A stretch of DNA of 64,000 bases from Candidatus Poribacteria bacterium (lineage in GTDB: Bacteria > Poribacteria > WGA-4E > WGA-3G). The DNA lies in assembly GCA_028820635.1 (NCBI GenBank), contig JAPPIG010000064.1, positions 195,074 through 259,073 of the forward strand. The letters run 5' to 3'. Shown one piece after another: positions 3,424-63,421 of the stretch (its first letter is position 1; every line of letters starts with the position of its first letter). The notes under the pieces are model-generated. The model was not told where the DNA came from and searched no databases. It saw only the letters and a program-made list of their open reading frames with translations. Made by a program: the position numbers and the translations under genes.

Positions 3424-3594
3424 ATTAATATAATTACGTAATTATTACGAAAAGTTTGTTTTCAAGTTATCTCTCCCAAAAGATGTTGTTTAACTTACGA
3501 ACATTATACAATCCAAAGTGGGATGGCATAAACAAGGCTTTTCGCATCAAACAAGACCAAATAGTTTATTGAATACATGAGGAGGAATTTACTC

Positions 3595-4377
3595 ATGCGT
3601 TTTACGATTTATGTGTTTATTGCGGTAATGTTTTTCGCTGGTGGCGTTCTCACTACTCAGGCTGCGTTAGACGACGGTTTAATTCTTTACTTCAGTTTTG
3701 ACAAAGAAGTAGATGGCACCATTACTGATGGCACCCTTGGAGGCAATAACGGTACGCTGACAAATGCAAGTGTTACAACAGATGAAAAGAAAGTTGGCGC
3801 AGGATCTTTGGAAATGTTAGATCAGAATGCCAGTTTGGAAGTTGAATCTTTTTCAGAAATGGAAGAGTATCAGGACAATAGTTTTGTGTTCTGGCTGCAC
3901 TTCATTCAGGCTCATAACGGTGCGTGGAGCCAAATCTTCGCCAAGAAAGCGCCTGGTTCTGATCGTTCCCCTGGAGTATGGATTTGCCCCAATTCCTTGA
4001 ATATCCACTATCGATTCAATCCTGGGAACCAAGGTAGCGGTTGTGCTGGTCCTGGTGGAGAAAACGAACTGTTTGAAACAGGTAAATGGTACCATATCGC
4101 TGGAGTCAAAGCGGGTGGCAAATTCCATTTTTATATTGATGGTGTCCAAGTTGGTGAATATGACGTTCCCGCAGAACACGCTCAAGGTGAAGAGAAACTG
4201 TATATTGGAAAGACAGGATATAGATCCGCGACCTTCTACATTGATGACTTTTTTGTTTTCAACCGAGGACTCTCTAAAGACGAGGTTAACGATATAATGG
4301 GTGGTTTACTCATTTCTGTTGAACCTCGTGATAAGTTGACAACAACTTGGGGACATCTGAAAACAAAGCGGAATTAA
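3595..4377 (+). CDS. secreted LamG-domain protein, paralog 2
   Basis: The ORF-track start at 3577 lies inside the RBS GGAGGA (3581-86). The likely start is the ATG at 3595, giving signal peptide MRFTIYVFIAVMFFAGGVLTTQA. LILYFSFD motif; C-terminal tail SVEPRDKLTTTWGHLKTKRN. Confidence 0.8.
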   Translation: MRFTIYVFIAVMFFAGGVLTTQAALDDGLILYFSFDKEVDGTITDGTLGGNNGTLTNASVTTDEKKVGAGSLEMLDQNASLEVESFSEMEEYQDNSFVFWLHFIQAHNGAWSQIFAKKAPGSDRSPGVWICPNSLNIHYRFNPGNQGSGCAGPGGENELFETGKWYHIAGVKAGGKFHFYIDGVQVGEYDVPAEHAQGEEKLYIGKTGYRSATFYIDDFFVFNRGLSKDEVNDIMGGLLISVEPRDKLTTTWGHLKTKRN

Positions 4378-4407
4378 CACTTAACCGTCACACATAAACA
4401 ACAAAGA

Positions 4408-4446
4408 ACATGGGGAAATTTCTTGAAATTTCCCCATGTTTTCTTA
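4408..4446 (+). terminator. rho-independent terminator after LamG paralog 2
   Basis: Perfect 15-bp stem ACATGGGGAAATTTC / GAAATTTCCCCATGT with loop TTG, followed by TTTCTT. Confidence 0.7.
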
Positions 4447-4470
4447 AACACTCTCATTCAGGTTCAGTGC

Positions 4471-5796
4471 ATGTTAACCTACCGTCTACTTATGTGCTTT
4501 TGCTTGGCACTATGTTTTCAGTGGTGGACAGCATCGGGATGGAGCGATACCGATGTTGAGCTTAATAATCCGTTTGCGCTTGGACTCCATTATATGGAGA
4601 TGGAACAGTATGATAAGGCGTTAGCAGCGTTTAACGTTATCCGCAAGCAAGAACCGAGTAGTGGTATCTATTGTTATATCGGTATGGTGCTTCAAGAACA
4701 AAATAGACTAAGTGAAGCATTAGAAGCGTACCAGAACGCTTTAACATTTAAAGCCCCTCCGCAAATACACGGCAGTGCCCACCTCCATTTAGGAATCGTT
4801 TATAAAGCACAAGGCAAATTACGTCCTGCAGAAACCCATCTGAAAGAGGCACTTGCGCTTACTCCTGAAACTCCAGAAGCACATATCCATCTTGGAGAGG
4901 TATACCTCCTCCAACGTCGATTGGATAAGGCAGAACGTGCCTATCGCCAGAGTATCCGTCTGAACCCAAATTTTACCCAGTCCTATTATGGGTTAGGTAG
5001 AGTCGCAGAAATGCAGAATGATTTCACCTCTGCTGTTGATGGCTACCTTCAAGCCATTAAGCAAAACCCTTACGACCCACAACCTCACTACCGACTAGCG
5101 ATGGCTTATCGTTGTTTACAAAAACAGGAAGCAGCAGAAAAGGCGATGGCACAATTTGAACGGATGAAAAGTTACTCAGACAATGTTCATCGGTTTCGCG
5201 AAACGATTTACAAGAATCCCAACACTCCGATTTTGTATGTAAAGTTAGGGGAACTTCACGAAAAATTCGACAATGTTGCTGACGCGCAACGCGTATATCA
5301 AACTGCAATTACATTACATCCCACCTTTTTGCCTGCCTACCATAGCCTTGGCACAGTGTTGATTCGTCAACGGGCCTTAGAAAAGGCTACCGCAGTATAT
5401 CTTAAAATAACGGAAATTAAACCCAGCGATGTTCAAGCGTGGTTAAAGTTAGGTGTGATATATATTAATCGTCAGCAATTTGAACCAGCAATTAAGGCAT
5501 TCAAACAAGCTATTACTGCCGACGACACATCCGCAGAGGCATATAACAATTTAGCCCGCGTTTACGCCGGACTCGGTACAGAAACAAAGCAAGCAATTAT
5601 ACTTGCGGAAAAGGCGGTTGCTTTGTCTCCAATACCGAAACATTACGACACACTTGCTTACACCTATTTCCGTGATGAGCAGTACCCAGAGGCATTAGTT
5701 GCTATCAATCGTGCTGTCACCCTTGCTCCGGGTGAAGCAGCTTATGGAAGTTTTCGCACAAAAATACAAGAGAAAATGAAAGAAAATAAAAAGTGA
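4471..5796 (+). CDS. TPR-repeat protein (secreted or periplasmic)
   Basis: Multiple 34-aa TPR units (A..Y..A.....P pattern) throughout. The ORF-track start at 4423 is the loop TTG of the terminator hairpin. The first ATG downstream, 4471, gives a hydrophobic N-terminus MLTYRLLMCFCLALCF. Confidence 0.7.
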   Translation: MLTYRLLMCFCLALCFQWWTASGWSDTDVELNNPFALGLHYMEMEQYDKALAAFNVIRKQEPSSGIYCYIGMVLQEQNRLSEALEAYQNALTFKAPPQIHGSAHLHLGIVYKAQGKLRPAETHLKEALALTPETPEAHIHLGEVYLLQRRLDKAERAYRQSIRLNPNFTQSYYGLGRVAEMQNDFTSAVDGYLQAIKQNPYDPQPHYRLAMAYRCLQKQEAAEKAMAQFERMKSYSDNVHRFRETIYKNPNTPILYVKLGELHEKFDNVADAQRVYQTAITLHPTFLPAYHSLGTVLIRQRALEKATAVYLKITEIKPSDVQAWLKLGVIYINRQQFEPAIKAFKQAITADDTSAEAYNNLARVYAGLGTETKQAIILAEKAVALSPIPKHYDTLAYTYFRDEQYPEALVAINRAVTLAPGEAAYGSFRTKIQEKMKENKK

Positions 5797-37951: not shown

Positions 37952-37990
37952 AAATAGGGCAGAGAGTACTCTCTGCCCTATTTTAGTTAA
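37952..37990 (+). terminator. rho-independent terminator after LamG paralog 3
   Basis: Perfect 15-bp stem AAATAGGGCAGAGAG / CTCTGCCCTATTT with loop tact, then TTTTAG. Confidence 0.75.
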
Positions 37991-38135
37991 TTGGCTGGTA
38001 TTCCTATATTTGTAGTAGAATCCAAAAATACGTAGACCCCTGATAAATGCAGTTTCCTAACCTCGCCTATACAGAATGTACAAATAATTCAAAATCCAAC
38101 CGTAAAACTAATGCTTTGTCTACCTATTATTGTGG

Positions 38136-38201
38136 GTCGCGATTCGGAGATCGCTCCTACAGAAGTCTTGTGTATTGTAGGAGGGAACTCCGATTCCCGA
38201 C
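38136..38201. repeat. palindromic intergenic repeat element, copy 1 (arms A-spacer-B)
   Basis: GTCGCGATTCGGAGATCGCTCCTACAG ...13 nt... TGTAGGAGGGAACTCCGATTCCCGAC. The arms are imperfect reverse complements. The spurious ORF 38047..38235 (..RFGDRSYRSLVYCRRELRFPT..) is a translation of it. Confidence 0.7.
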
Positions 38202-38248
38202 TACATTCAAGAACCATCAATTAACACTTGACTAAGCACTAAATCAAT

Positions 38249-41200
38249 ATGTCAGAGGAGAGGGAAATTAAGTTGAAGGCACAAGTAAATTTCATAAAAA
38301 TCAGTTGCATATTGATGTTGATTTTAGTCGGTAGTGTTGATGCACAACAGAATCTGGCACAAGAGGCTTACGCGATCTTTGAACAGTCGTGTCTAATATG
38401 TCATGGTGAAAATGGTTCCTACAGGGAATCGCTCATCATTGAGCATGCAGCACTCATTAAAGGTGGCACAGTTGTTCCCGGAAACCCTGATGCCTCCGTA
38501 TTCTTTCAACGACTCATTGAATCAAACGTTTCCAAACGGATGCCACTCGGACAACCACCGCTTGACTCCGAAGCAATTACGACGATTCGGCAATGGATTT
38601 TAGCAGGCGCCCCCGATTGGAGTGACACTCCCAGACCAAAACCCGACTTCATTACAAACGGGACGATGCTCGGAACAATTGAAAATCACGTCAACTCACT
38701 CACACCGTTTGACCGTTCCTTCGCTCGCTATTTCACATTAACACATCTCTACAACGCAGGTGAGACAACTGAAGCACTCAACGCCTATCGGCGCGCCCTC
38801 TCAAAACTGATTAATAGCCTCTCTTGGGGACGCCAAGTTGTCAAACCGCAGCCGATTGATGCAGAACAAACTATTTTCTATATTGACCTGCGCGACTACG
38901 AATGGGATGTCCGAAACGATGCATGGACACAGATTGAGCAGGCATACCCTTACAAAATGACGTTTGATGCCCCAACACAAACACATCTCCACGAAAAACT
39001 GACGACCCTACAGCAAGAGATGAACTGTGAAGTGCCGTTTGTCCATATAGATTGGTTTCTTGCGACTGCCTCGCTACCACCGCTCTACCATGACATTCTC
39101 GCGTTGCCCAAAACAGACCGTGAATTAGAGGCATCACTTGAGGTGTTCGTTACCGAAAACCTCCTAAATGCACCGGGAAAACGCGTTTGGCGTGCAGGTT
39201 TCAACAATTCGGGTGTTTCAAGGCATAATCGCGTTGTTGAGCGTCACATATCACGGTATGGTGCATATTGGAAAAGTTATGACTTTGCGGGAAGTGCGGA
39301 ATCGCAGAATATCTTTACACATCCGCTTGATTTCATACATGACGGTGGCGAAATTATCTTTAACCTACCGAACGGTTTACAAGCATATTATCTTGTAGAT
39401 GGTGAAGGAAACCGTCTTGATGTAGCACCGACAGACATTGTTTCTAATCCCGCTGTCAGTGATCCTGCTGTGCGTAATGGACTTTCCTGCATTGGCTGCC
39501 ACACGGAAGGGATGAAGACGTTTGAAGACGAAGTGCGTGCTGCTGTTGAAGAAGCTGACAATCCACCTTTTAACAAAGATAGGGCTTTAAATCTCTATGT
39601 AGAAAGAGCAGTGATGGCTGATCTTGTAGCGGAGGATACGCAACGTTACAGGACAGCACTTGAAGCAGCAGGCGGTGTTTTTGGTGGTATTGAACCGGTC
39701 CAGCGATTCCATGAGGCGTTTCAAGGTCCGCTTGATGCTGCACACGCTGCAGCTGCGGTTGGATTTGAAACGGAGGTGTTTCTTGAAAAAATCAGCGAGA
39801 ATGTGAGTTTACAAAACTTATTAGGCACACAAATATTAGAAAACAGCACCGTCAAACGAGATACATGGACGTATCATTTTGAGAAAGTGATCTCGCTCCT
39901 GAATACGCCAGATACAATACTTCCACCCGTTGAACAACGCCCTGAGCGTATTCCTGGTGCCACTGTTCACATCCCCGATGCACAGCTACGAGCATCGATT
40001 GAGAAGAAACTCGGCAAAGCGTCCGGGGACCCAATTACGATAAAGGAAATGAAAAATCTTCCACAAAGGTACACGCTTCCAATAGATATACATACATCAG
40101 GAGTTGAAAATCTTGAGGGAATCCAATTCGCGACCAATTTACAACACTTATCTATTTCATACAGTTCAGTAACCGACCTATCACCACTGTCTGGACTTAC
40201 AAAATTGGAACGTCTATCTCTTCGCGAGATAGCCAGAGATAGAGCACCCAACGGTAGTATCCTTAAGCACCACAACCTTGATCTATCACCTTTAGAAGGA
40301 TTAACCAAATTAAAGTGGTTATATATTGTCAAAACCAGAATAGACGATCTTTCACCGCTTTCAAAGTTGAATAATTTGAGGGGCCTTACACTGTATGGTT
40401 GTCCCAATCTGCGCGGTTCTCCCGATAACATCTCTGACATATCACCCTTAGCCGCATTAACTAATTTGGGTGCTCTTAATCTGTCAAATAACAACATCTC
40501 TGACATATCACCCTTAGCCGCATTAACTAATTTGGGTGCTCTTTATCTATTTAACAACAACATCTCTGACATATCATCCTTATCCGCAATACCTCATAAT
40601 TTCTTTACGCTTGATCTGGGACAAAATAACATATCAGATATTTCGCCTCTGGCAAACATGCAAGGATTAAGAAAACTACTTTTAGATTCCAACAATATAT
40701 CAGATGTTACACCTCTGGCAAACTTACATCGATTAGAAGGACTACTAATACAGCATAATGACATATCCGACATATCGCCTCTGAACAAGTTACGCGAACG
40801 GACAAATAAGGTATTTTGGCACGACAACCCTGGTTTCCCGCAGGGAGGACCTGAAATGATAGACTCATGGGTATGGGGAGTCATCCCAGCAGAGGAAATC
40901 AAAGATCACTCTGACCCTGGCATACCTGGAGAAATTATTTATATAAATAGTCAGGTTAGCTTTGCCAGAGATGCGGATTTGCTTTTAGATGTAACTGATG
41001 GCTCGTTAAGCGAATTAGAGGTTGCTACTAACGGGGCAATCGTGGGAAATCCTGTTGTCGGAGAACACGTATGGACACCACACAAATTCAAACGTCCTCC
41101 CGGCGAATATGATGAAGATTTTTATACCCGTAGGCAAAACACTCTTAAAATACCGCCTTATGGTTGTGTCGTTTATGGTTCAGTTACCTTGTATTCACCT

Positions 41201-43063: not shown

Positions 43064-43197
43064 TTAGACATTATAATGATTTAATTTGAATTAAGGTTTA
43101 CCGAGCGTCTTGGACCTCTTGAGTTCCGTAGAACGCTATGTTTATAGAGCGTATCTCATAAATAGGATTTGTTGGTTCATTATCAGTTGATTCTCTT

Positions 43198-43252
43198 TGT
43201 AGGAGGGAACTCCGATTCCCGACAGGTCGCGATTCGGAGATCGCTCCTACAG
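43198..43252. repeat. palindromic intergenic repeat element, copy 2 (arms B-A, tight loop)
   Basis: TGTAGGAGGGAACTCCGATTCCCGAC ag GTCGCGATTCGGAGATCGCTCCTACAG: same two arms as copy 1, in swapped order. Confidence 0.7.
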
Positions 43253-43334
43253 GATTTTGAAATCGGGCTTTCAAAGCCCTCCAACTATTTATGATAGGTT
43301 GTACATAAATGTTCATACGGAAGTAAAATTTAAC

Positions 43335-44648
43335 ATGGAATCGCACATAAACCTTATTCAAATTCGCAAATACACAATACGGACGTTAAGATACGTAACG
43401 ATACTTATCCTCTGTAGCGGATTAGGGCACATTTCCCATGCCAACCCTCCCAACGAATACTTCCAACGCGGCGTAAAATATTTTGAAGAAGGTCGTTATA
43501 GTAAGGCATTACAATCTTTTGACAAAGCCCTGCAATCTCAAACAGCAGATGCCGATCCTAATTGGTTTGCCGAAATTCATTTCCAAAAAGCAACCGCTTA
43601 CCGCGCGTTGGAGGAGCATGTGAAGGCTGTATCGGAATACAAGGCAGCGATCGCGCTCAACCAAAATTCTGCAGTTTTCTACAACGCACTCGGAATTACG
43701 CACTCGGAACTCAAGCAATATACTGCCGCACTTAATGCTTATAAGAAGGCATTACAGTTGTCCCCAATGACAGCAGAACCACACTATAATATCGGGTTGG
43801 TTTATCTGAAACAGGGAACTTTTCCGCTTGCTGTAGATGCGTTTAAAGAAGCGGTTACTATTGATGCAAAATGGTCAGATGCCCATAGCGGACTTGCTGA
43901 GGCATACTTAAAACAAGAGTTTCTTTCTCAAGCAGAAAAATCTTATGTGAAGGCAGTTCGTCTGAATCCAAGTGGAATCGGTGCGAATTTGGGTTTAGGT
44001 CAGGTATATGCTAAGCAGACACGGTATGATGACGCGATAACAAAGTTTAAGAAAGTTATTGATATCCAACATGATAACACGGATGCACACTATCAACTCG
44101 CCCAGATATATATCAAACTTGGGGAAAAAGAAAAAGCATCATCAGCAATGGAGTTTTTTAAAATTCTCCGCCACACTGATCCACTTCTTCAAAAAGCCCA
44201 GAAGTATGTCAAAATTCATCCAGATGATCCGAAAGGCTATAACAATCTCGGTATTGTTTACTTGACGCGCAAGCGGTATGACAAAGCAATTGAAAGCTAT
44301 AAACGCGCAATTTCACTGTCCCCTACTTTAGCCTCTTCCCACTACAATTTAGGACTTACCTATCACAAACAAGGAAATATAAAACTCGCAATTGAGGCAT
44401 ACCAAAAAGCAATCTCTGCAGATGCAACGCTTGCCATTGCCCATAATAATATCGCTGTTTGCTACACTGAATCGCAAGCGGATCTTGAAAAAGCACTATC
44501 CCACGCACAAACCGCCACTGACCTCGCGCCAACTGAGGCGAATTATTGGGATACGCTCGCCACTGTTTACACTCAGCTTGGATTAAACAGTGAAGCAAAA
44601 CATGCCCGCCAAAAGCAGATTTCCCTCCTAACTACGTCGAAAAAATGA
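43335..44648 (+). CDS. TPR-repeat protein with N-terminal signal/anchor
   Basis: About 10 TPR units (e.g. AEIHFQKATAYRALEEHVKAVSEYKAAIALNQ). The ORF-track start at 43257 abuts the repeat; the ATG at 43335 gives a hydrophobic N-terminus. Confidence 0.7.
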   Translation: MESHINLIQIRKYTIRTLRYVTILILCSGLGHISHANPPNEYFQRGVKYFEEGRYSKALQSFDKALQSQTADADPNWFAEIHFQKATAYRALEEHVKAVSEYKAAIALNQNSAVFYNALGITHSELKQYTAALNAYKKALQLSPMTAEPHYNIGLVYLKQGTFPLAVDAFKEAVTIDAKWSDAHSGLAEAYLKQEFLSQAEKSYVKAVRLNPSGIGANLGLGQVYAKQTRYDDAITKFKKVIDIQHDNTDAHYQLAQIYIKLGEKEKASSAMEFFKILRHTDPLLQKAQKYVKIHPDDPKGYNNLGIVYLTRKRYDKAIESYKRAISLSPTLASSHYNLGLTYHKQGNIKLAIEAYQKAISADATLAIAHNNIAVCYTESQADLEKALSHAQTATDLAPTEANYWDTLATVYTQLGLNSEAKHARQKQISLLTTSKK

Positions 44649-51675: not shown

Positions 51676-52677
51676 ATGCAAAATAAGTTAACACCGAAGA
51701 ATATTATCCTTCTTCTCATCGTATGTTTTATACCCTTGCTTCTGTTTGGAATAGATTTGCTTGCCCGTCTTTTGTTCGATAACTTCGGTATTGATCTGCC
51801 TATTCCGGGCGCAAGTTCCATACTACGAATTCTCGCTTTGACAGGTCTGTATGTTTTGCTCGCCGTTGGACTTAATATAGTCTGTGGTTATACAGGATTG
51901 TTAGATCTTGGGTACGTTGGTTTCTATCTTGTAGGCGGATATACCGTGGGGCTTTTGATGACTCGTTTTGGATTTAGTTATTGGATAGCTCTACCGCTTG
52001 CTGTATTGAATGGTGCATTTTGGGGGTTGCTGAGAGGGGTGCCTACCTTACGCCTCACTGGAGATTATTTCGCGATAGTAACATTCGGGTTTGCAGAATT
52101 GTTATACCAAATCGTTAAGAATGAAGAATGGCTGATAGGGAATGTGAACGGTATGGTCAACGACATTCCGCGAGCATCAATTTTCGGGATAGAACTTGAT
52201 CAAAATTTGTACCATTATTACCATATTCTCATCTTGATCGCATTAGTAGTTTTTGTTTCCTATCGATTACAGCATTCTCGCGTTGGAAGAGCGTGGGTAG
52301 CCATCCGGGAAGATGAACAAGCAGCTGAGAGTATGGGTATCAATATTAGTCGATATAAGTCACTTGCCTTTGCAGTTAGCGCAGCTATTGGTGCCCTTGG
52401 CGGAGCCTTTTTTACACAACTTCAGTCTAATCTAGCCGTAGAAGTATTTGAATTTTGGGAATCCATTCTAATTCTATGCATGGTCGTTCTCGGTGGAATG
52501 GGAAATATTAGAGGGGCTATAATAGGTGGGATTATTATTGGTTCTTTAGGCGAAGTCTTACGTATCGTTCTCGGCTTTAACCCTCAACTTGCGGATGCAC
52601 GGTTTCTCATCTTTGGAATTATCTTAATATTATTAATGCGTTATCGTCCCGATGGATTGGTTTTTAGAAAAACATGA
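51676..52677 (+). CDS. livM: branched-chain amino acid ABC transporter permease LivM
   Basis: LivM-type permease following livH; GLLDLGYVGFYLVGGY motif. Confidence 0.8.
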   Translation: MQNKLTPKNIILLLIVCFIPLLLFGIDLLARLLFDNFGIDLPIPGASSILRILALTGLYVLLAVGLNIVCGYTGLLDLGYVGFYLVGGYTVGLLMTRFGFSYWIALPLAVLNGAFWGLLRGVPTLRLTGDYFAIVTFGFAELLYQIVKNEEWLIGNVNGMVNDIPRASIFGIELDQNLYHYYHILILIALVVFVSYRLQHSRVGRAWVAIREDEQAAESMGINISRYKSLAFAVSAAIGALGGAFFTQLQSNLAVEVFEFWESILILCMVVLGGMGNIRGAIIGGIIIGSLGEVLRIVLGFNPQLADARFLIFGIILILLMRYRPDGLVFRKT

Positions 52678-52716
52678 GCACACATTAAATAAGGTCAAGT
52701 ACATAAAAACTGTCCT

Positions 52717-53751
52717 TCAACCCATCTTACTTGAACTATCCTCCTTCCCGTTTTTCCATTTCTGAATAAGCATTTCTCCCACTAAAAGAATCAGTGCCAA
52801 CCCCGCAAACCACTGAAACCTTTCCTCATATTCACCATCAGAATGCACTCTAAATTTCTGCTTTTCAAGTTGTGCCAAGTCTGTTGCTAACTGGGCAACA
52901 CCCTCGTCTGCATGATAATAGTTACCATTCCCTTCTTTGGCAATTTCGCGTAAACTTACCTCATTTAATGCGGTTAACACCAGTTGTCCATCCACATTTC
53001 GTTTGTACCCCGCACTTTCAACCGGAAGAGGTATCGGAACAGGTTTTTCAGAGTTTCCAACACCAACACAATATATATGTACTCCATCTCTCTTAGCTGC
53101 TTTTGCTGCTGCAATAGCATCATCACCGAAGTCCTCCCCGTCTGTGAAAAGAATCAATACTTTCTGTCCGCTGGAATTATTTTTTGTTGTCAACTCACTC
53201 CTATCTGAAACGAATCGGTCAGTTGCGACTTCAATAGCGTTGCCAATATGTGTGCCTCTATGTGCAAGGGTTTCTGGAGTCAACGATGCTAAAAATTCTC
53301 TTAACGTCTTTACATCGCTTGTCAATGGACATACGACAACACTTGCTTCAGCAAAGTAGAGTAAACCGAGCCGATCCCCTTTAAGCTGCTCCATCAAAGA
53401 AAACATAAAATCTTTTGCTTGCGTTATTCGTCGGACAGAGTTGTCATCTATGGCAAGCATACTCGTAGAAATATCCATCGCAAGCATGACATCTAATCTT
53501 TCAGCGACAGTTTCAGGTTTAGCACCCCACTGCGGATGCGCGATTGCAATAGCCATAAACAGGTAACTCAACATCAACAACATTGCTTGAATTTTGTGTC
53601 GTTTTAGATGGGTTGCCCGGACATTGCTTTGGAAAAGCAGCATCGCCTTCCGCTTCATTCGCAATCCCAAAAGAAGCAGTAGAATTAAAATAGGCAATCC
53701 GATCCATAACAAAAAGATGAACTCCGGATTGCCAAAACGAAACCAATTCAT
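52717..53751 (-). CDS. von Willebrand factor A domain protein, BatA-like
   Basis: N-terminal two TM helices (MNWFRFGNPEFIFLLWIGLPILILLL...), then a vWA domain with MIDAS DISTSM, and a C-terminal TM. Confidence 0.75.
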   Translation of the reverse strand: MNWFRFGNPEFIFLLWIGLPILILLLLLGLRMKRKAMLLFQSNVRATHLKRHKIQAMLLMLSYLFMAIAIAHPQWGAKPETVAERLDVMLAMDISTSMLAIDDNSVRRITQAKDFMFSLMEQLKGDRLGLLYFAEASVVVCPLTSDVKTLREFLASLTPETLAHRGTHIGNAIEVATDRFVSDRSELTTKNNSSGQKVLILFTDGEDFGDDAIAAAKAAKRDGVHIYCVGVGNSEKPVPIPLPVESAGYKRNVDGQLVLTALNEVSLREIAKEGNGNYYHADEGVAQLATDLAQLEKQKFRVHSDGEYEERFQWFAGLALILLVGEMLIQKWKNGKEDSSSKMG

Positions 53752-59240: not shown

Positions 59241-61634
59241 TTAACTCCCTTCATCCGTTAACTCATAATAACCAGCATGTCTGTTATAGTATCCATAGGA
59301 TTTAGCGTGCTTTGGACTTATCATATTGCATAACACGCCGATACCTTTTGATGGCAAAACTTCCTTAAGATGTTTTATCCCTGTCAACACATCAAAACGT
59401 TTAGTTTTCGTAATGTCAAATACATAAACGACAGCATCAACGATAGTCGCTAAAATAACCGGATCCGCTACTGCACGCACAGGTGGAGAATCGATAACTA
59501 TTACATCGTATTCAGATTTTACCAGTTCCAGCCATTGTGTCATCATATCTGAATTTAGTAGTTCAATAGGATTTGGTGGAACAGTGCCACCCGGCACGAG
59601 GTGGAAATTGGGAATACCAGTCTGCCTCACTGTTGACTGAAAAACATCATAACTATTTTCAGTGTTTATACTGATGAGTGCTTCGCTCAACCCTGGTTTA
59701 CGGGTGTCACTATGCGTTACCACTTGTGGATCGGATACAGAGTCTTCGGACGTATCAATCTCATCAGGGGATGTTATCTTAAGAAGTTGTTCTGTCGGGA
59801 AAAATGTGTGTTGCGACGGTCTACGCATATCCGCATCTATGAGTAATACCTTATTCCCTTTTTGCGCGAGCGCAGCAGCGAGATTGGAAGAAACAGTACT
59901 CTTCCCTTCTCCACGGGTAGAACTTGTGACAAGAACAGTTTTCAATCCACCACCGAGGTTAAGAAATGGTAGTTTCGCTACAAGCACTCTAAACGCTTCT
60001 GCTGTTCTGGAGTTAGGCGCGTCATTTACAATGAGAGGAATCCGATAAGCACTCCGTTTCTTAATGGAGGGAATAACACCGAGAAAACTTGGCGGCTCCG
60101 GCAGCGAATCTAATTGACGGACAGAATCTTCTAATCGCAAATATGTGTCTTTGAAGTAATTTTTGGCTACAGCAAATGTAAGACCGAGTAGTCCACCAAG
60201 CATTGCTCCTAAAACAAGATTTAATTTCATCCGAGGTTTGATAGGCTCTTCTGAAAGACGGGCATGATCTAATACCTTAAGACTATCTGTGCGGGCTTCA
60301 GCAACAATTTGTGACTCCCGTATTTTCGCCTCTAAAGCAACGACCTGTGCAGTGTAAATTTCAACATCGCGCTTAAGACGAAACATCTTCAACTGTTCAT
60401 CTGACCAACTCCCAAGTGTTTTGAGGTATTCATTGATTTGAGTAGAAACCTCTTCCTTTTGTTTCTTAAGGCTCTTAATTGCAGCTTCTGCTTCATTGAC
60501 CTTTTCTGTGAGTGCTTGATGAAGCGGGTTGAAAGATGACGTTGTGCTTGTAATTTCTTTTTCTTCTTTGGTAAGGCGTGATTTTGTTTCTTTTATTTTT
60601 TCATCAAGAGAGGTAATTTCAGGATGTGTTACATCCCCGTATTTTCCGATAAGTGCCTTCCGTTCAATTTCATATTCGTTCAAGTTGTCATTCAGTTTGG
60701 AATATGAAGGGTTCTTTGTTTTCGTTTCTGAAATAAGATTTTCTTCAATTTTTTCAAGGTCATCTTGATATGCTAAAAGCCTCAATTCGGCAGCAGCCAA
60801 TTGGCTTGTCAGTTCGTTTTCACTCAATTGCAAGGCTACAATCAGTTGTGCTTGGGTTCCCGCCTCAGCATTTAAAGTCAACTCCGTATTTTCTTGCTGG
60901 AATTCAAAGAGTTGCTGCTCCGAACTTTTCAGGTTCTGCTTTGCTTCCTCCAACATTTCTTGCGGGAGTGGCTTTTCCCACCATCGCATATTTTCCGTTT
61001 TCTCTGCATCAACAACTTGGATGAGTACAGCGGCAATTCTATTACACAGAAGCTGCGCGTATTCTGGGTACTGTTGTTTCACAGTAAGGGTGATAACGTT
61101 GCCATCCTGGGATTCTTCAACTTTTAACTTCTCATCAATAAGCGTTTTGATGAAATAGTCTTTCCACTCAGTATCAGTGAGTTCACCTTGTTCAGTCACG
61201 GTCGAATCCAATTCAATATTCAGAAAATTCGCCAACCGCTTCACTGTGTCCCCTCGGTGAAGTGGTTGTGGTTTCAACAGTTCTTCATCTATAAGTTGGC
61301 TGACTGTTGGGGCAATCACTAAGTCTCGGGATTGCATCAAAGTCGCGTAAGTGCCTAATGATGCACCTTTTAGGAATCCCGATAGTGGAAACTGTGAAAG
61401 TAATGAAGATGCGGATTGGTCATCAAGGATACGAAGCGTTGTTTCGGATTGATAAACTGGTGGTGTGAAATCGGTTACGAGGAATGCACCAAAGACACAA
61501 AGTAAAAAGATTGCAAGAACACTCCATTTATTCCGGAAAAGTATCCAAAAATAGTCTGATAATCGAATTTCTGTAATTTGTTCAAGTTGTCGATCAGTTG
61601 TTTCTGGCATATTAACCTCATTCTCGTTTTCCAT
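59241..61634 (-). CDS. wzc: polysaccharide co-polymerase / BY-kinase (Wzc-like tyrosine autokinase)
   Basis: N-terminal Wzz-like domain with 2 TM helices and long coiled coils. Walker A VTSSTRGEGKST, Walker B VIVIDSPP, C-terminal Tyr cluster YGYYNRHAGYY. Confidence 0.8.
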   Translation of the reverse strand: MENENEVNMPETTDRQLEQITEIRLSDYFWILFRNKWSVLAIFLLCVFGAFLVTDFTPPVYQSETTLRILDDQSASSLLSQFPLSGFLKGASLGTYATLMQSRDLVIAPTVSQLIDEELLKPQPLHRGDTVKRLANFLNIELDSTVTEQGELTDTEWKDYFIKTLIDEKLKVEESQDGNVITLTVKQQYPEYAQLLCNRIAAVLIQVVDAEKTENMRWWEKPLPQEMLEEAKQNLKSSEQQLFEFQQENTELTLNAEAGTQAQLIVALQLSENELTSQLAAAELRLLAYQDDLEKIEENLISETKTKNPSYSKLNDNLNEYEIERKALIGKYGDVTHPEITSLDEKIKETKSRLTKEEKEITSTTSSFNPLHQALTEKVNEAEAAIKSLKKQKEEVSTQINEYLKTLGSWSDEQLKMFRLKRDVEIYTAQVVALEAKIRESQIVAEARTDSLKVLDHARLSEEPIKPRMKLNLVLGAMLGGLLGLTFAVAKNYFKDTYLRLEDSVRQLDSLPEPPSFLGVIPSIKKRSAYRIPLIVNDAPNSRTAEAFRVLVAKLPFLNLGGGLKTVLVTSSTRGEGKSTVSSNLAAALAQKGNKVLLIDADMRRPSQHTFFPTEQLLKITSPDEIDTSEDSVSDPQVVTHSDTRKPGLSEALISINTENSYDVFQSTVRQTGIPNFHLVPGGTVPPNPIELLNSDMMTQWLELVKSEYDVIVIDSPPVRAVADPVILATIVDAVVYVFDITKTKRFDVLTGIKHLKEVLPSKGIGVLCNMISPKHAKSYGYYNRHAGYYELTDEGS

Positions 61635-61678
61635 GAATACGCCCTAATGGACAGCCCATTCTAAAATTATAGGCAATA

Positions 61679-61744
61679 GTCGGGAATCGGAGTTCCCTCC
61701 TACAATAGATAAGATTTCTGTAGGAGCGATCTCCGAATCGCGAC
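61679..61744. repeat. palindromic intergenic repeat element, copy 3 (reverse orientation), intercistronic between wza and wzc
   Basis: GTCGGGAATCGGAGTTCCCTCCTACA ...14 nt... TGTAGGAGCGATCTCCGAATCGCGAC. The spurious ORF 61618..61899 (..RFGDRSYRNLIYCRRELRFPT..) is a translation of it. Confidence 0.7.
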
Positions 61745-61829
61745 CTATAATATAAATGTAGACTGAACACTAAGGAAATAAGAAAGGATAAAAATGGAAT
61801 AGAGAACATATATTTTCTTTCTTGTTTTT

Positions 61830-63011
61830 TTATCTGTATCTTAACCAAACACTTACGACTAAGTTTGTCAGCGAAGCAGCGAAGCTCAAAACTCGCCAAT
61901 CAATCCGTGTTCGTTCTAATATTCGGAGTTGATCGTTTGGGTGAAGATAAACTTCTGACTGAACCAAATTAAAGTCAAGTTCTTCTTGTGTTCCATCGGC
62001 ACGTGTAAGGATACATTTTTTGGGGTTGGCTTTCTCCTCGTCTAATCCACCTGCCATTGCCACAGCATCTCTTAAAAGTATCGGTTCAGTAATTACATAT
62101 TGACTTGGCTTATCTACTGCTCCGACAACGCTAATTTTTGCCTCAGCCAGTGGAATAAATAAAACATCCCCTGGTTTCAACATTGCGCTAACATTTTCCG
62201 AAGTGAGATCAATAGGGGTATTTTCGGGACCGGTGATAATCTCAGCCTTTTTTAAATCTGCGAAGTCAGCTCTGGAACCACCTGCAAGTTTCAACGCTTG
62301 GTCAGCAGGGATCTGATTATTTGTAATTGGATAAAAGCCGGGAGTTATGACTGCTCCAATTACACGAATCCGTCGTTGTGCATAAATAGAAGGTACAATA
62401 ACAATATCATAATCTTTCAAAGGAATATCAACGCCACCTGTTTGAATATGCTCTTCGAAATTTACTGTTTTAAAAATCTCACCATTGCGCCAGACTGTAA
62501 TTTTGGTTAGATCAGCCAGTTCATAGTTGATTCCTGCCGCCGCCAAAGCATGCATCAAATAAACTTGTCCTGTTTCAAAAATATGCATGTTTCCTCTCGG
62601 TCTCTGATCAACTGCTCCGAAAACCAGAATGTGTCGTTTGGGTTGCATGAGTGTAACAAACACTCGGGCGCTCGGAAGTTTCTTGGCGAAAACCCGCTGC
62701 ATCTGTGCTTCAAGTTCTGAAACTGTTACACCTGTTGCCTTGATTAACCCAATGAGTGGGTAGGAGATATAGCCATCTGGTTGAATAGGAATGGGAACGC
62801 GGTCTTTAGTATATTCAGGATAACCTTCAACAGTAACAACAATACTGTCCCCAATCTGCAATTTATAAGTGGATGTTTCTGGAAACTGTGGACTTTTGGT
62901 TACAATGTTTTCATCAGAGGTTTCCTCAGCAAAAACGAATGGAGAGAAACTTTGAAATCCTAAAATTATCAGGGAAAGAAATAGAAAACGTAAACGTAAA
63001 AACGTGTTCAT
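61830..63011 (-). CDS. wza: polysaccharide export outer-membrane protein (Wza-like; Poly_export plus SLBB domains)
   Basis: Likely start at 63011 (signal peptide MNTFLRLRFLFLSLIILGFQSFSPFVFA); the ORF-track start at 63131 adds 40 aa. YKLQIGDSIVVTVEGYPEY...PDGYISYPLIGLIKATGVTVSELE is a Poly_export signature. Confidence 0.75.
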   Translation of the reverse strand: MNTFLRLRFLFLSLIILGFQSFSPFVFAEETSDENIVTKSPQFPETSTYKLQIGDSIVVTVEGYPEYTKDRVPIPIQPDGYISYPLIGLIKATGVTVSELEAQMQRVFAKKLPSARVFVTLMQPKRHILVFGAVDQRPRGNMHIFETGQVYLMHALAAAGINYELADLTKITVWRNGEIFKTVNFEEHIQTGGVDIPLKDYDIVIVPSIYAQRRIRVIGAVITPGFYPITNNQIPADQALKLAGGSRADFADLKKAEIITGPENTPIDLTSENVSAMLKPGDVLFIPLAEAKISVVGAVDKPSQYVITEPILLRDAVAMAGGLDEEKANPKKCILTRADGTQEELDFNLVQSEVYLHPNDQLRILERTRIDWRVLSFAASLTNLVVSVWLRYR

Positions 63012-63421
63012 AAATTTCACATAACCTTTTGTTTGCTTTCTTGGAGTACACCTTGAGATAATCTCATATTGACGTTTTTGGGACTTATGTTCTTTATTAT
63101 TTCTTAAAATTCTCGCGCAGACTTTCAGCAATACAGCGTTTTTCAGTATAAATGTTCCTTAAAGTGATTTCTAAAGAATTTTAGCAGGAATAGGGCAAAG
63201 ATTCAAGTGAAAATAGAAAAACTACCAAGTTGGAGTAGTAGTCTTTCCTCAGCCTTCATTTATCCTGTTTGTTGTAATCAGTTACGTTTTTCTTCAAGAA
63301 ATTTTGGAAAAAGTTACACATACTTGGTTGAGAATGTTTGTTGCTTTAACCTATTGAGTTATGCTAATATAATCTTGTGAATTTAAAAAATGTCTTTACT
63401 CAAATTAAAAATAAAAAGGTG

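Follow-up and report, generated by a model that had tools for sequence, protein, structure and literature searches.

GTAG-tagged REP units of the Poribacteria, two pairs of which probably travelled as the cores of IS630-type MITEs

We analysed a 64,000-nucleotide stretch of the genome of a Candidatus Poribacteria bacterium (assembly GCA_028820635.1, contig JAPPIG010000064.1, positions 195,074 to 259,073 of the forward strand; hereafter the window), in which an imperfect palindromic repeat of 55-66 bp occurs three times (copies 1 to 3). Each copy joins two arms, A and B, and these arms are GTAG-tagged repetitive extragenic palindromic (REP) units of a Poribacteria-wide, previously undescribed family; the literature that we searched holds no paper that joins Poribacteria with REPs, REP-associated tyrosine transposases (RAYTs) or REP doublets forming hairpins (REPINs), or that has these sequences. 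We consider it probable that copies 1 and 3 are the cargo of MITEs (miniature inverted-repeat transposable elements) that have a GTAG-tagged REP core, mobilised by a transposase of the IS630 type of insertion sequence (IS). Both kinds of element, REP and MITE, are classic and known, and what is new is the family within Poribacteria.

A sequence-only reading of the window had reported the three copies, and exact matches at all three sites bear it out. In a search that allowed up to three mismatches, arm A (GTCGCGATTCGGAGATCGCTCCTACAG) was found at 38136-38162 (+), 43226-43252 (+) and 61718-61744 (-) and arm B (TGTAGGAGGGAACTCCGATTCCCGAC) at 38176-38201 (+), 43198-43223 (+) and 61679-61704 (-), that is, three matches per arm, all of them mismatch-free, where chance would lead one to expect none and dinucleotide-preserving shuffles gave 0 matches to either arm with 3 mismatches tolerated. 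A degenerate pattern covering both arms returned the same six units only, with no diverged extra copies in the 64-kb window. By the strand of the GTAG head, the type A units (stem GCGAT/ATCGC) lie on the minus strand in copies 1 and 2 and on the plus strand in copy 3, and the type B units (stem GGGAA/TTCCC) on the plus strand in copies 1 and 2 and on the minus strand in copy 3; the heads of copy 2 point outward across a 2-nt linker. The arms, described earlier as near reverse complements, are complementary at 22/26 positions, and folding each copy confirmed that every arm pair can form a long stem, of 21-22 bp with four symmetric single-base mismatches (RNA -33 to -37 kcal/mol, DNA about -18; z scores about -5 to -6). 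The spacers of 13 nt in copy 1 and 2 nt in copy 2 were given correctly; that of copy 3 is 13 nt, not 14. All three copies are intergenic, and the two short open reading frames (ORFs) that run over repeats share the peptide SRFGDRSYR..(I/V)YCRRELRFPT, which is, as had been suspected, the repeat translated and nothing else.

The same reading had proposed a REP- or MITE-like family with further copies elsewhere, possibly lineage-specific, and both expectations held when one genome per species was scanned with the four arm-variable positions left free. The scan returned at least 113 matching stretches of 8 kb each (L-numbers below denote genome stretches) from 51 assemblies, and among the matches listed 49 assemblies are named Candidatus Poribacteria and all stretches carry the name Candidatus or uncultured Poribacteria, save 2 from a single metagenome-assembled genome labelled 'uncultured bacterium'. 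About 250-264 units were counted in the 113 stretches with up to 4 mismatches, compared with 6 in the 64 kb of the window, and they are found in independent assemblies, closed long-read chromosomes included.

A unit is 25-27 nt long, within the 20-40 nt expected of a REP: (c)T-GTAG-GA leads into a 5-bp stem whose two strands enclose the invariant loop CTCCGA, and GAC closes the unit, its conservation spanning the cT ahead of GTAG through to GAC. Two compensatory base-pair swaps separate the two main stem variants, A and B; taken as its reverse complement (GTAGGAGCGATCTCCGAATCGCGAC), arm A departs from arm B (GTAGGAGGGAACTCCGATTCCCGAC) at four positions, and these four arm mismatches are not noise: they are the two swaps in the hairpin inside each arm. 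Position by position, the GTAG is kept by 256 (G), 252 (T), 246 (A) and 249 (G) of 264 units, a conservation that was partly selected for, since the scan pattern (up to 4 mismatches) itself contained GTAG; the CT ahead of it is enriched though it lay outside the pattern (C in 158 and T in 191 of the 264), and the GA after GTAG and the GAC after the stem are nearly invariant. At the free positions the 167 exact-pattern units show the combinations CTAG (74), GATC (57), GTAC (18) and rarer others, with both variable pairs Watson-Crick in 153/167. Across 77 distinct units the inner stem is paired in 89.9% of cells, against 73.9% with shuffled partners (0/500 as high) and 26-55% when the partner is slid, and four pair types are seen at each of the two variable stem pairs (CG 31, GC 29, AU and UA at pair 8:21; UA 33, AU 26, CG 3 and GC 2 at pair 11:18), these covariation counts being of sequences, not of events. 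An alternative GGAG/CTCC hairpin is invariant, and hence uninformative for covariation, and several rarer stem versions pair in a shifted register, e.g., GCGAGC..GCTCGC and GCGACC..GGTCGC.

When isolated pairs were aligned together with their 70-nt flanks, the unit type setting the orientation, conserved arms were seen to continue for 30-41 nt past the pair on both sides. The 55-66-bp pair that had been taken for the whole element is thus real, but in copies 1 and 3 it forms the core of a longer putative MITE of 122-127 bp. MITE copy 1 (class IIa, unstranded, 127 bp), delimited by an alignment of 16 elements and by its ends, occupies 38112..38238 with an A+B core; extraction of its terminal inverted repeats (TIRs) gave TGCTTTGTCTA at 38112-38122 and TTGACTAAGCA at 38228-38238, and identical CTAA target-site duplications (TSDs) stand to the left (38108..38111) and right (38239..38242). 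MITE copy 3 (class IIb, unstranded, 122 bp), delimited in the same manner and likewise with an A+B core, occupies 61648..61769, with TIRs TGGACAGCCCA at 61648-61658 and TAGACTGAACA at 61759-61769 and identical CTAA duplications at 61644..61647 and 61770..61773. Folded whole, the two elements reach -45.8 kcal/mol (z = -5.5) and -56.5 kcal/mol (z = -6.9), respectively.

Both belong to what we call class II, elements of 122-134 bp with GTAG heads inward and no transposase gene. Their 11-nt TIRs, of sub-type TGCTTTGTCAA or TGGACAGTCCA, are present in 13/16 elements, window copies 1 and 3 included, and the outer 4-bp flanks are identical in 10/16 (CTAG 4, CTAT 3, CTAC 1, CTAA 1, TTAG 1). Six of these flank matches are non-palindromic, which marks them as direct target duplications and not as an extension of the TIR, and in the elements that have CTAN on both sides, N agrees in 9/9 cases. 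No TSD was found right at the edges of the arm pair itself; it becomes visible only at the true outer ends. On these terminal features copies 1 and 3 are best described as IS630-derived MITEs whose internal segment is a REP heterodimer.

Two further carriers hold the same units. Class I, with GTAG heads outward, consists of 132-140-bp elements with inverted arms of about 28 nt (TTATAGTGnAnnTnnAATTAAnTTTACA), both of them present in 18/37 elements and at least one in 27/37; its palindromic ends, TTATAG...CTATAA, hide any TA duplication. The third carrier, with ends GGGCTATTTAGTT...AACTAAATAGCCC, encloses single A and D units. Carriers of classes I, II and III also hold other GTAG-type cores, e.g., dimers of GTAGGTTGGGTTGAGCGAAGCGAAACCCAAC in L017 and, inside a carrier in L032, a GTAGGAGCGAGCTGCGCTCGCGAT unit that is Pseudomonas-like, and every carrier observed had a GTAG core; Poribacteria thus hold several REP families in interchangeable carriers. 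Examples with other GTAG-type REP cores lie at L017 6510-6641, L043 6609-6815, L032 2836-2975 and L049 6530-6655.

The ends of the class II MITEs recur at larger spacing, in elements of 1.24-1.26 kb (L018 204-1446 and L001 3559-4814, with a partial one in L077), and in all three a helix-turn-helix ORF is followed by a DDE_3 ORF. Matches to the model NF033545 (IS630 family transposase; cut-off 100 bits) reach 121.7 and 130.2 bits, each IS630-family element is bracketed by CTAG, and the IS end in L001 (TGGTTAGTCCAGTCTAACTTTTCGGGTATAG) is identical to the MITE IIb arm (TGGACAGTCCATTCTAATTCTTCGGGTAAAG) at 25/31 positions. Metagenomes are rich in relatives of this transposase; about 38/47 environmental relatives with both ends recovered have the ends CTAG-T[AG]....GTCA[AC], and their terminus is the TIR type of MITE IIa, CTAG-TGCTTTGTCAAC. 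In L001, a class II MITE (3430-3562) abuts the IS630-family element (3559-4814) with one CTAG common to both, an arrangement that looks as if a regenerated target had been used twice.

The TIRs, the TSDs and the similarity to IS ends are the grounds on which we propose that copies 1 and 3 were mobilised by a DDE transposase in trans. In such a course of events, they would have arrived as cargo of the 127- and 122-bp MITEs, with an IS630-family DDE transposase presumably supplied from a parent IS of roughly 1.25 kb, of the kind seen in other Poribacteria genomes, and insertion at a CTAN target would have duplicated CTAA at both sites. Copy 2 is an A+B pair without recognisable MITE ends, and the REP units themselves may have originated as substrates of a RAYT-type single-strand transposase. 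Once transcribed, hairpins of -33 to -56 kcal/mol might act like REP and MITE hairpins elsewhere, either by holding up 3' exonucleases or by structuring the 5' leader of the gene downstream.

Several observations weigh against this proposal. The window contains no IS630 gene, so that mobilisation in trans stays a presumption for this genome; the search for a clean empty site of a class II MITE found none, the sequence predicted for copy 3's empty site had no match in the metagenome collection, and orthologous intergenic regions in other species hold other elements, not empty sites. IS630-family elements are usually described as duplicating TA only, whereas the flanks of the MITEs point to a duplication of 4 bp, CTAN; every environmental IS copy stands between palindromic CTAG sequences, at which duplications of 2 bp and 4 bp are indistinguishable. 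With respect to the REP core, single-unit hairpins are weak (-3.5 to -6.6 kcal/mol) and no better than shuffles, tblastn detected no RAYT-like gene in the window, nor in any of the 112 REP-bearing stretches other than L059, and the RAYT that does occur in Poribacteria is bracketed by a different, inverted REP (REP-C; GTAGGGTG[CG]GCACTGC[GC]CACC). Finally, unit orientation showed no bias relative to transcription and units were not depleted between divergent genes, which argues against a strict 3'-end RNA role.

Arrangement of the units followed strict rules. They form 148 clusters, comprising 75 singletons, 61 doublets and larger groups of up to 14 units; inverted neighbours were one A and one B in 48/48 typed cases, and direct neighbours were homotypic in 22/22. 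As inverted pairs are always A+B, the long hairpin always retains its four mismatches. Pairs with heads outward have linkers of 13-15 nt, rarely of 1-2 nt as in window copy 2, and pairs with heads inward, the arrangement of window copies 1 and 3, have linkers of 14-16 nt. The largest cluster seen (L075 2930-3490) has 14 units in which A and B alternate with two linker types, resembling the bacterial interspersed mosaic elements (BIMEs); L045 4066-4429 holds ten direct A units with purine-rich spacers of 12-13 nt, and L004 2698-2877 holds five direct B units. Such arrays, like the singletons inside genes, contradict the idea that the units are confined to MITE carriers.

Placement was overwhelmingly intergenic, and no accumulation inside conserved coding sequence emerged: 113 of the 148 clusters lie between ORFs of at least 150 aa, 22 at a locus edge and 13 overlap an ORF, which makes 113/126 assessable clusters (about 90%) intergenic. 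Most of the 13 overlaps are at over-extended 5' ends. Two are truly intragenic, L057 4607-4631 in an Eco57I-like restriction-modification gene and L076 3669-3693 in a UvrD/PD-(D/E)XK helicase-nuclease gene, and recall the published bias of intragenic REPs to DNA-repair genes. The gene pairs around intergenic clusters are tandem in 77 cases, convergent in 15 and divergent in 21, and the genes that flank units belong to unrelated housekeeping families. Genes bracketed by A/B units and recurrent neighbour families were considered as possible transposases and proved to be ordinary paralogues (GFO/IDH/MocA, WD40, LamG, PhyH, sulfatase, etc.). A single exact unit is also present in each of two IMG/VR 'viral' contigs with a GC content of about 50% (L124 1659-1683 and L125 1105-1129), which are possibly prophage calls in Poribacteria genomes.

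The units invite an explanation in which no carrier is needed: A+B pairs would be REPINs, copied by a RAYT acting on single-stranded hairpins, and the surrounding arms either incidental or preferred targets. E. coli TnpA-REP requires GTAG and cuts at a CT beside the REP, and the loop bases of short REPs are decisive for it (PMC8266576); the CT ahead of GTAG and the invariant loop of the Poribacteria units would fit that picture, as would the GTAG head itself, the covarying stem, the mixture of singletons and both pair types, and BIME-like clusters that grow beside existing units. The same units also occur in several different carriers and inside genes, and the phylum does have a RAYT (L059 5565-6140; NF047646 at 175.6 bits, cut-off 80), whose orthologues occupy one syntenic site, in the order TPR protein, HD-domain protein, RAYT, 166-aa protein, methyltransferase and ferrochelatase, much like a domesticated gene. 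Yet this RAYT is flanked by the other REP type, as is the case in two 38%-GC genomes, the roughly 0.9 Mb of REP-bearing DNA has no RAYT next to A/B units, and a Y1 HUH transposase does not leave the kind of 4-bp direct duplication and IS630-type TIR that mark copies 1 and 3 (PMC8266576). We consider an origin by RAYT activity alone unlikely.

The RAYT locus merits description in its own right. REP-C units show compensatory variants, are rare elsewhere and are absent from the window. RAYT queries were an approximate E. coli RayT sequence, used as a lead only, and the Poribacteria RAYT. A RAYT beside A/B units was sought through five homologue look-ups, each of which led to the same REP-C-flanked syntenic locus or to genomes from outside the Poribacteria. 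The loci lie at L059 5449-6760 and, in L114-L119, around 4001-4580, with a partial duplicate of the RAYT 3' end in L059 and three tandem full RAYT copies in L119. RAYTs of about 60% identity from the two 38%-GC genomes (L120 2994-3681 and L121 2994-3650) are flanked by the same REP type (GTAGGGTGGGCAATGCCCACC), and further relatives with about 60% identity belong to named cyanobacteria. Comparison of these loci suggests that the RAYT and its REP may travel or persist together across phyla.

A host motif held by selection, for instance one that a nucleoid or regulatory protein binds or one that serves RNA stability or attenuation, would not need to move at all. Loop and head are strongly conserved across about 50 species, the hairpins are long and stable, and, with CTAA counted in, two of the window's copies stop 6-9 nt upstream of a start codon. 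Set against this are the unrelated housekeeping neighbours, the orthologous spacers that vary in the presence, arrangement and type of element, the target-site duplications and the arrays of 10-14 units, together with the lack of an Rfam match, an orientation bias or a promoter or terminator signature, so that we regard a non-mobile host motif as very improbable. We give next to no credence to chance resemblance, to an artefact of assembly or to an array of the CRISPR kind: the repetitive look and direct short-spacer arrays such as that in L045 might recall CRISPR, but in place of unique spacers of about 30 nt there are spacers of 12-16 nt that are themselves repeated, and most neighbours are inverted, and artefact or chance sits poorly with zero shuffle matches and with the same units in independent assemblies, including closed long-read chromosomes. 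Carriage of copies 1 and 3 by IS630-type MITEs is the reading that we prefer.

A wider claim, that the REP pairs of Poribacteria spread largely as MITE cargo in at least three unrelated terminal-repeat carriers, we offer tentatively and judge rather doubtful. If it were true, REPs would be disseminated independently of RAYTs by hitch-hiking on DDE transposases; alternatively, REP or REPIN insertion would target the apex of pre-existing long palindromes, and the carriers would record the target choice of a RAYT. How REPs disseminate is still an open question (PMC8266576), and copies 1 and 3, which bear the footprints of a DDE-type (TIR and TSD) and not of a Y1 enzyme, would offer a concrete alternative route.

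The small intergenic repeat RUP of Streptococcus pneumoniae has been linked to an IS630-type element. Like RUP, Correia/CREE of Neisseria and ERIC, which are 100-160 bp long with TIRs, a TA-centred duplication and no transposase gene, the Poribacteria MITEs fold into long hairpins and are intergenic, often near gene starts (PMC3184786); unlike them, they have a REP heterodimer as core and flanks of 4 bp (CTAN) instead of TA. The units themselves follow the design of the GTAG-tagged REP superfamily, in which GTAG-1 and GTAG-2 follow the GTAG with extra 'GW' bases and have a tail of 3 bp, and from which heterodimers are known as well as clusters and units lying within repair genes (PMC3733652). 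With the GTAG-1/GTAG-2 REPs of Pseudomonas and the 5-bp stems of Thauera they share the unpaired GTAG, the GA and the 3-bp tail (Di Nocera et al. 2013, PMC3733652), as well as compensatory stem sub-families, occurrence as singletons, dimers and clusters, a mostly intergenic location and occasional units in repair genes. They differ in the invariant 6-nt loop CTCCGA on a 5-bp stem and in belonging to a new phylum, and, unlike GTAG REPs that occur in REPtrons, no REPtron with A/B units was found in the sampled stretches or the window. In contrast to E. coli BIMEs (Y/Z heterodimers) and Pseudomonas REPINs, many Poribacteria pairs lie inside TIR carriers with target duplications, and the sampled stretches yielded no cognate RAYT for the A/B units. 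The closest parallel in architecture is provided by GTAG-15 dimers of Anabaena variabilis, which likewise sit at the centre of long palindromes (TATAGGAnTnnnATTTGATT..TGAAA--TTTCA..; PMC3733652) that the class I arms resemble in style; what sets Poribacteria apart is that at least three unrelated carriers hold the same units, that these carriers hold other cores too, and that TSD and parent IS family were identified for one carrier class.

A phylum-wide REP family in uncultivated sponge symbionts is a useful lineage marker, and one that causes assembly breaks and spurious short ORFs. The compensation within the 5-bp stem and the strict A+B rule bear on how units are recognised and on the avoidance of perfect long palindromes.

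Comparisons between strains and loci point to turnover. The near-identical strains L115 and L118 differ by a 162-nt indel with an A+B pair inside, and a search for its flanks gave no further copies. Where the spacers of L023 are 17 nt or shorter, L036 has insertions that contain REPs; a cluster in L050 corresponds to a single unit in L099, the L062 orthologue of the window copy-1 region has the pair in the other arrangement, and in one orthologous spacer L081 and L014 hold unrelated elements. An IS beside a class I element in L038 was considered as its mobiliser and rejected, as it is an IS701-family element inserted into the end of the MITE (4223-5522; 346-aa transposase, NF049921 365 bits, TIR TCAGGACTTACGCA, TAG duplication); the window spacer orthologous to that site (52677-52717) has neither the IS701 nor the class I element.

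Within the window, copy 2 lies between a small ORF and a TPR gene that starts at 43335, and no IS630-type TIR or TSD was recognised at it. Its flank at 43253-43305 recurs at a non-orthologous Poribacteria locus, L047, together with a small hairpin (GGGCTTTCAAAGCCC) that stands beside copy 2 at 43266-43280. The copy is enclosed by nested inverted repeats, namely a perfect 10-nt pair (TCATAAATAG/CTATTTATGA) at 43156-43165 and 43285-43294 and an outer 16-nt pair at 43083-43098 and 43349-43364, the right member of which enters the TPR gene. Other small palindromic intergenic repeats (e.g., CCCCCTnnnnCCCCTTnnnAGGGGG) are found near REP units at L036 6240-6300 and L030 790-850.

Copy 1 lies between a LamG-like gene and a 1429-aa LRR/cohesin/dockerin gene, and copy 3 between a Wza-like (61830-63131, -) and a Wzc-like (59241-61634, -) polysaccharide-export gene. 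MITE copy 1 ends 10 nt before the ATG at 38249 (6 nt with CTAA counted) and MITE copy 3 ends 13 nt from the start codon at 61634 (9 nt with CTAA counted), and an independent gene call agrees on the start codons (ENA ERZ23495530, ROBB21-1 scaffold_36). The sequence-only reading had also suggested that the repeats affect mRNA stability, termination or recombination; as to termination we found no support, a terminator with a U-tract being absent at all three sites. Nor do they have a sigma-70-like promoter, the TTGACT boxes that face outward from the arms lack a consistent -10 partner on inspection of the alignment, and the window gave no match in Rfam 15 at the gathering score and contains no tRNAs. 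A short-read (Logan) contig, L123, ends inside MITE copy 3, 51 nt upstream of the Wzc-like start (its positions 1-51 correspond to about 61635-61685 of the window), which indicates that the repeat breaks assemblies. Directly after the LamG-like gene, at 37956-37985, a hairpin (GGGCAGAGAG-TA-CTCTCTGCCC) is followed by ATTTTA and is conserved in the orthologous L062; its 2-nt loop made the terminator scan miss it, and it is probably the real terminator. MITE copy 1 lies downstream of this hairpin, in the leader of the next gene.

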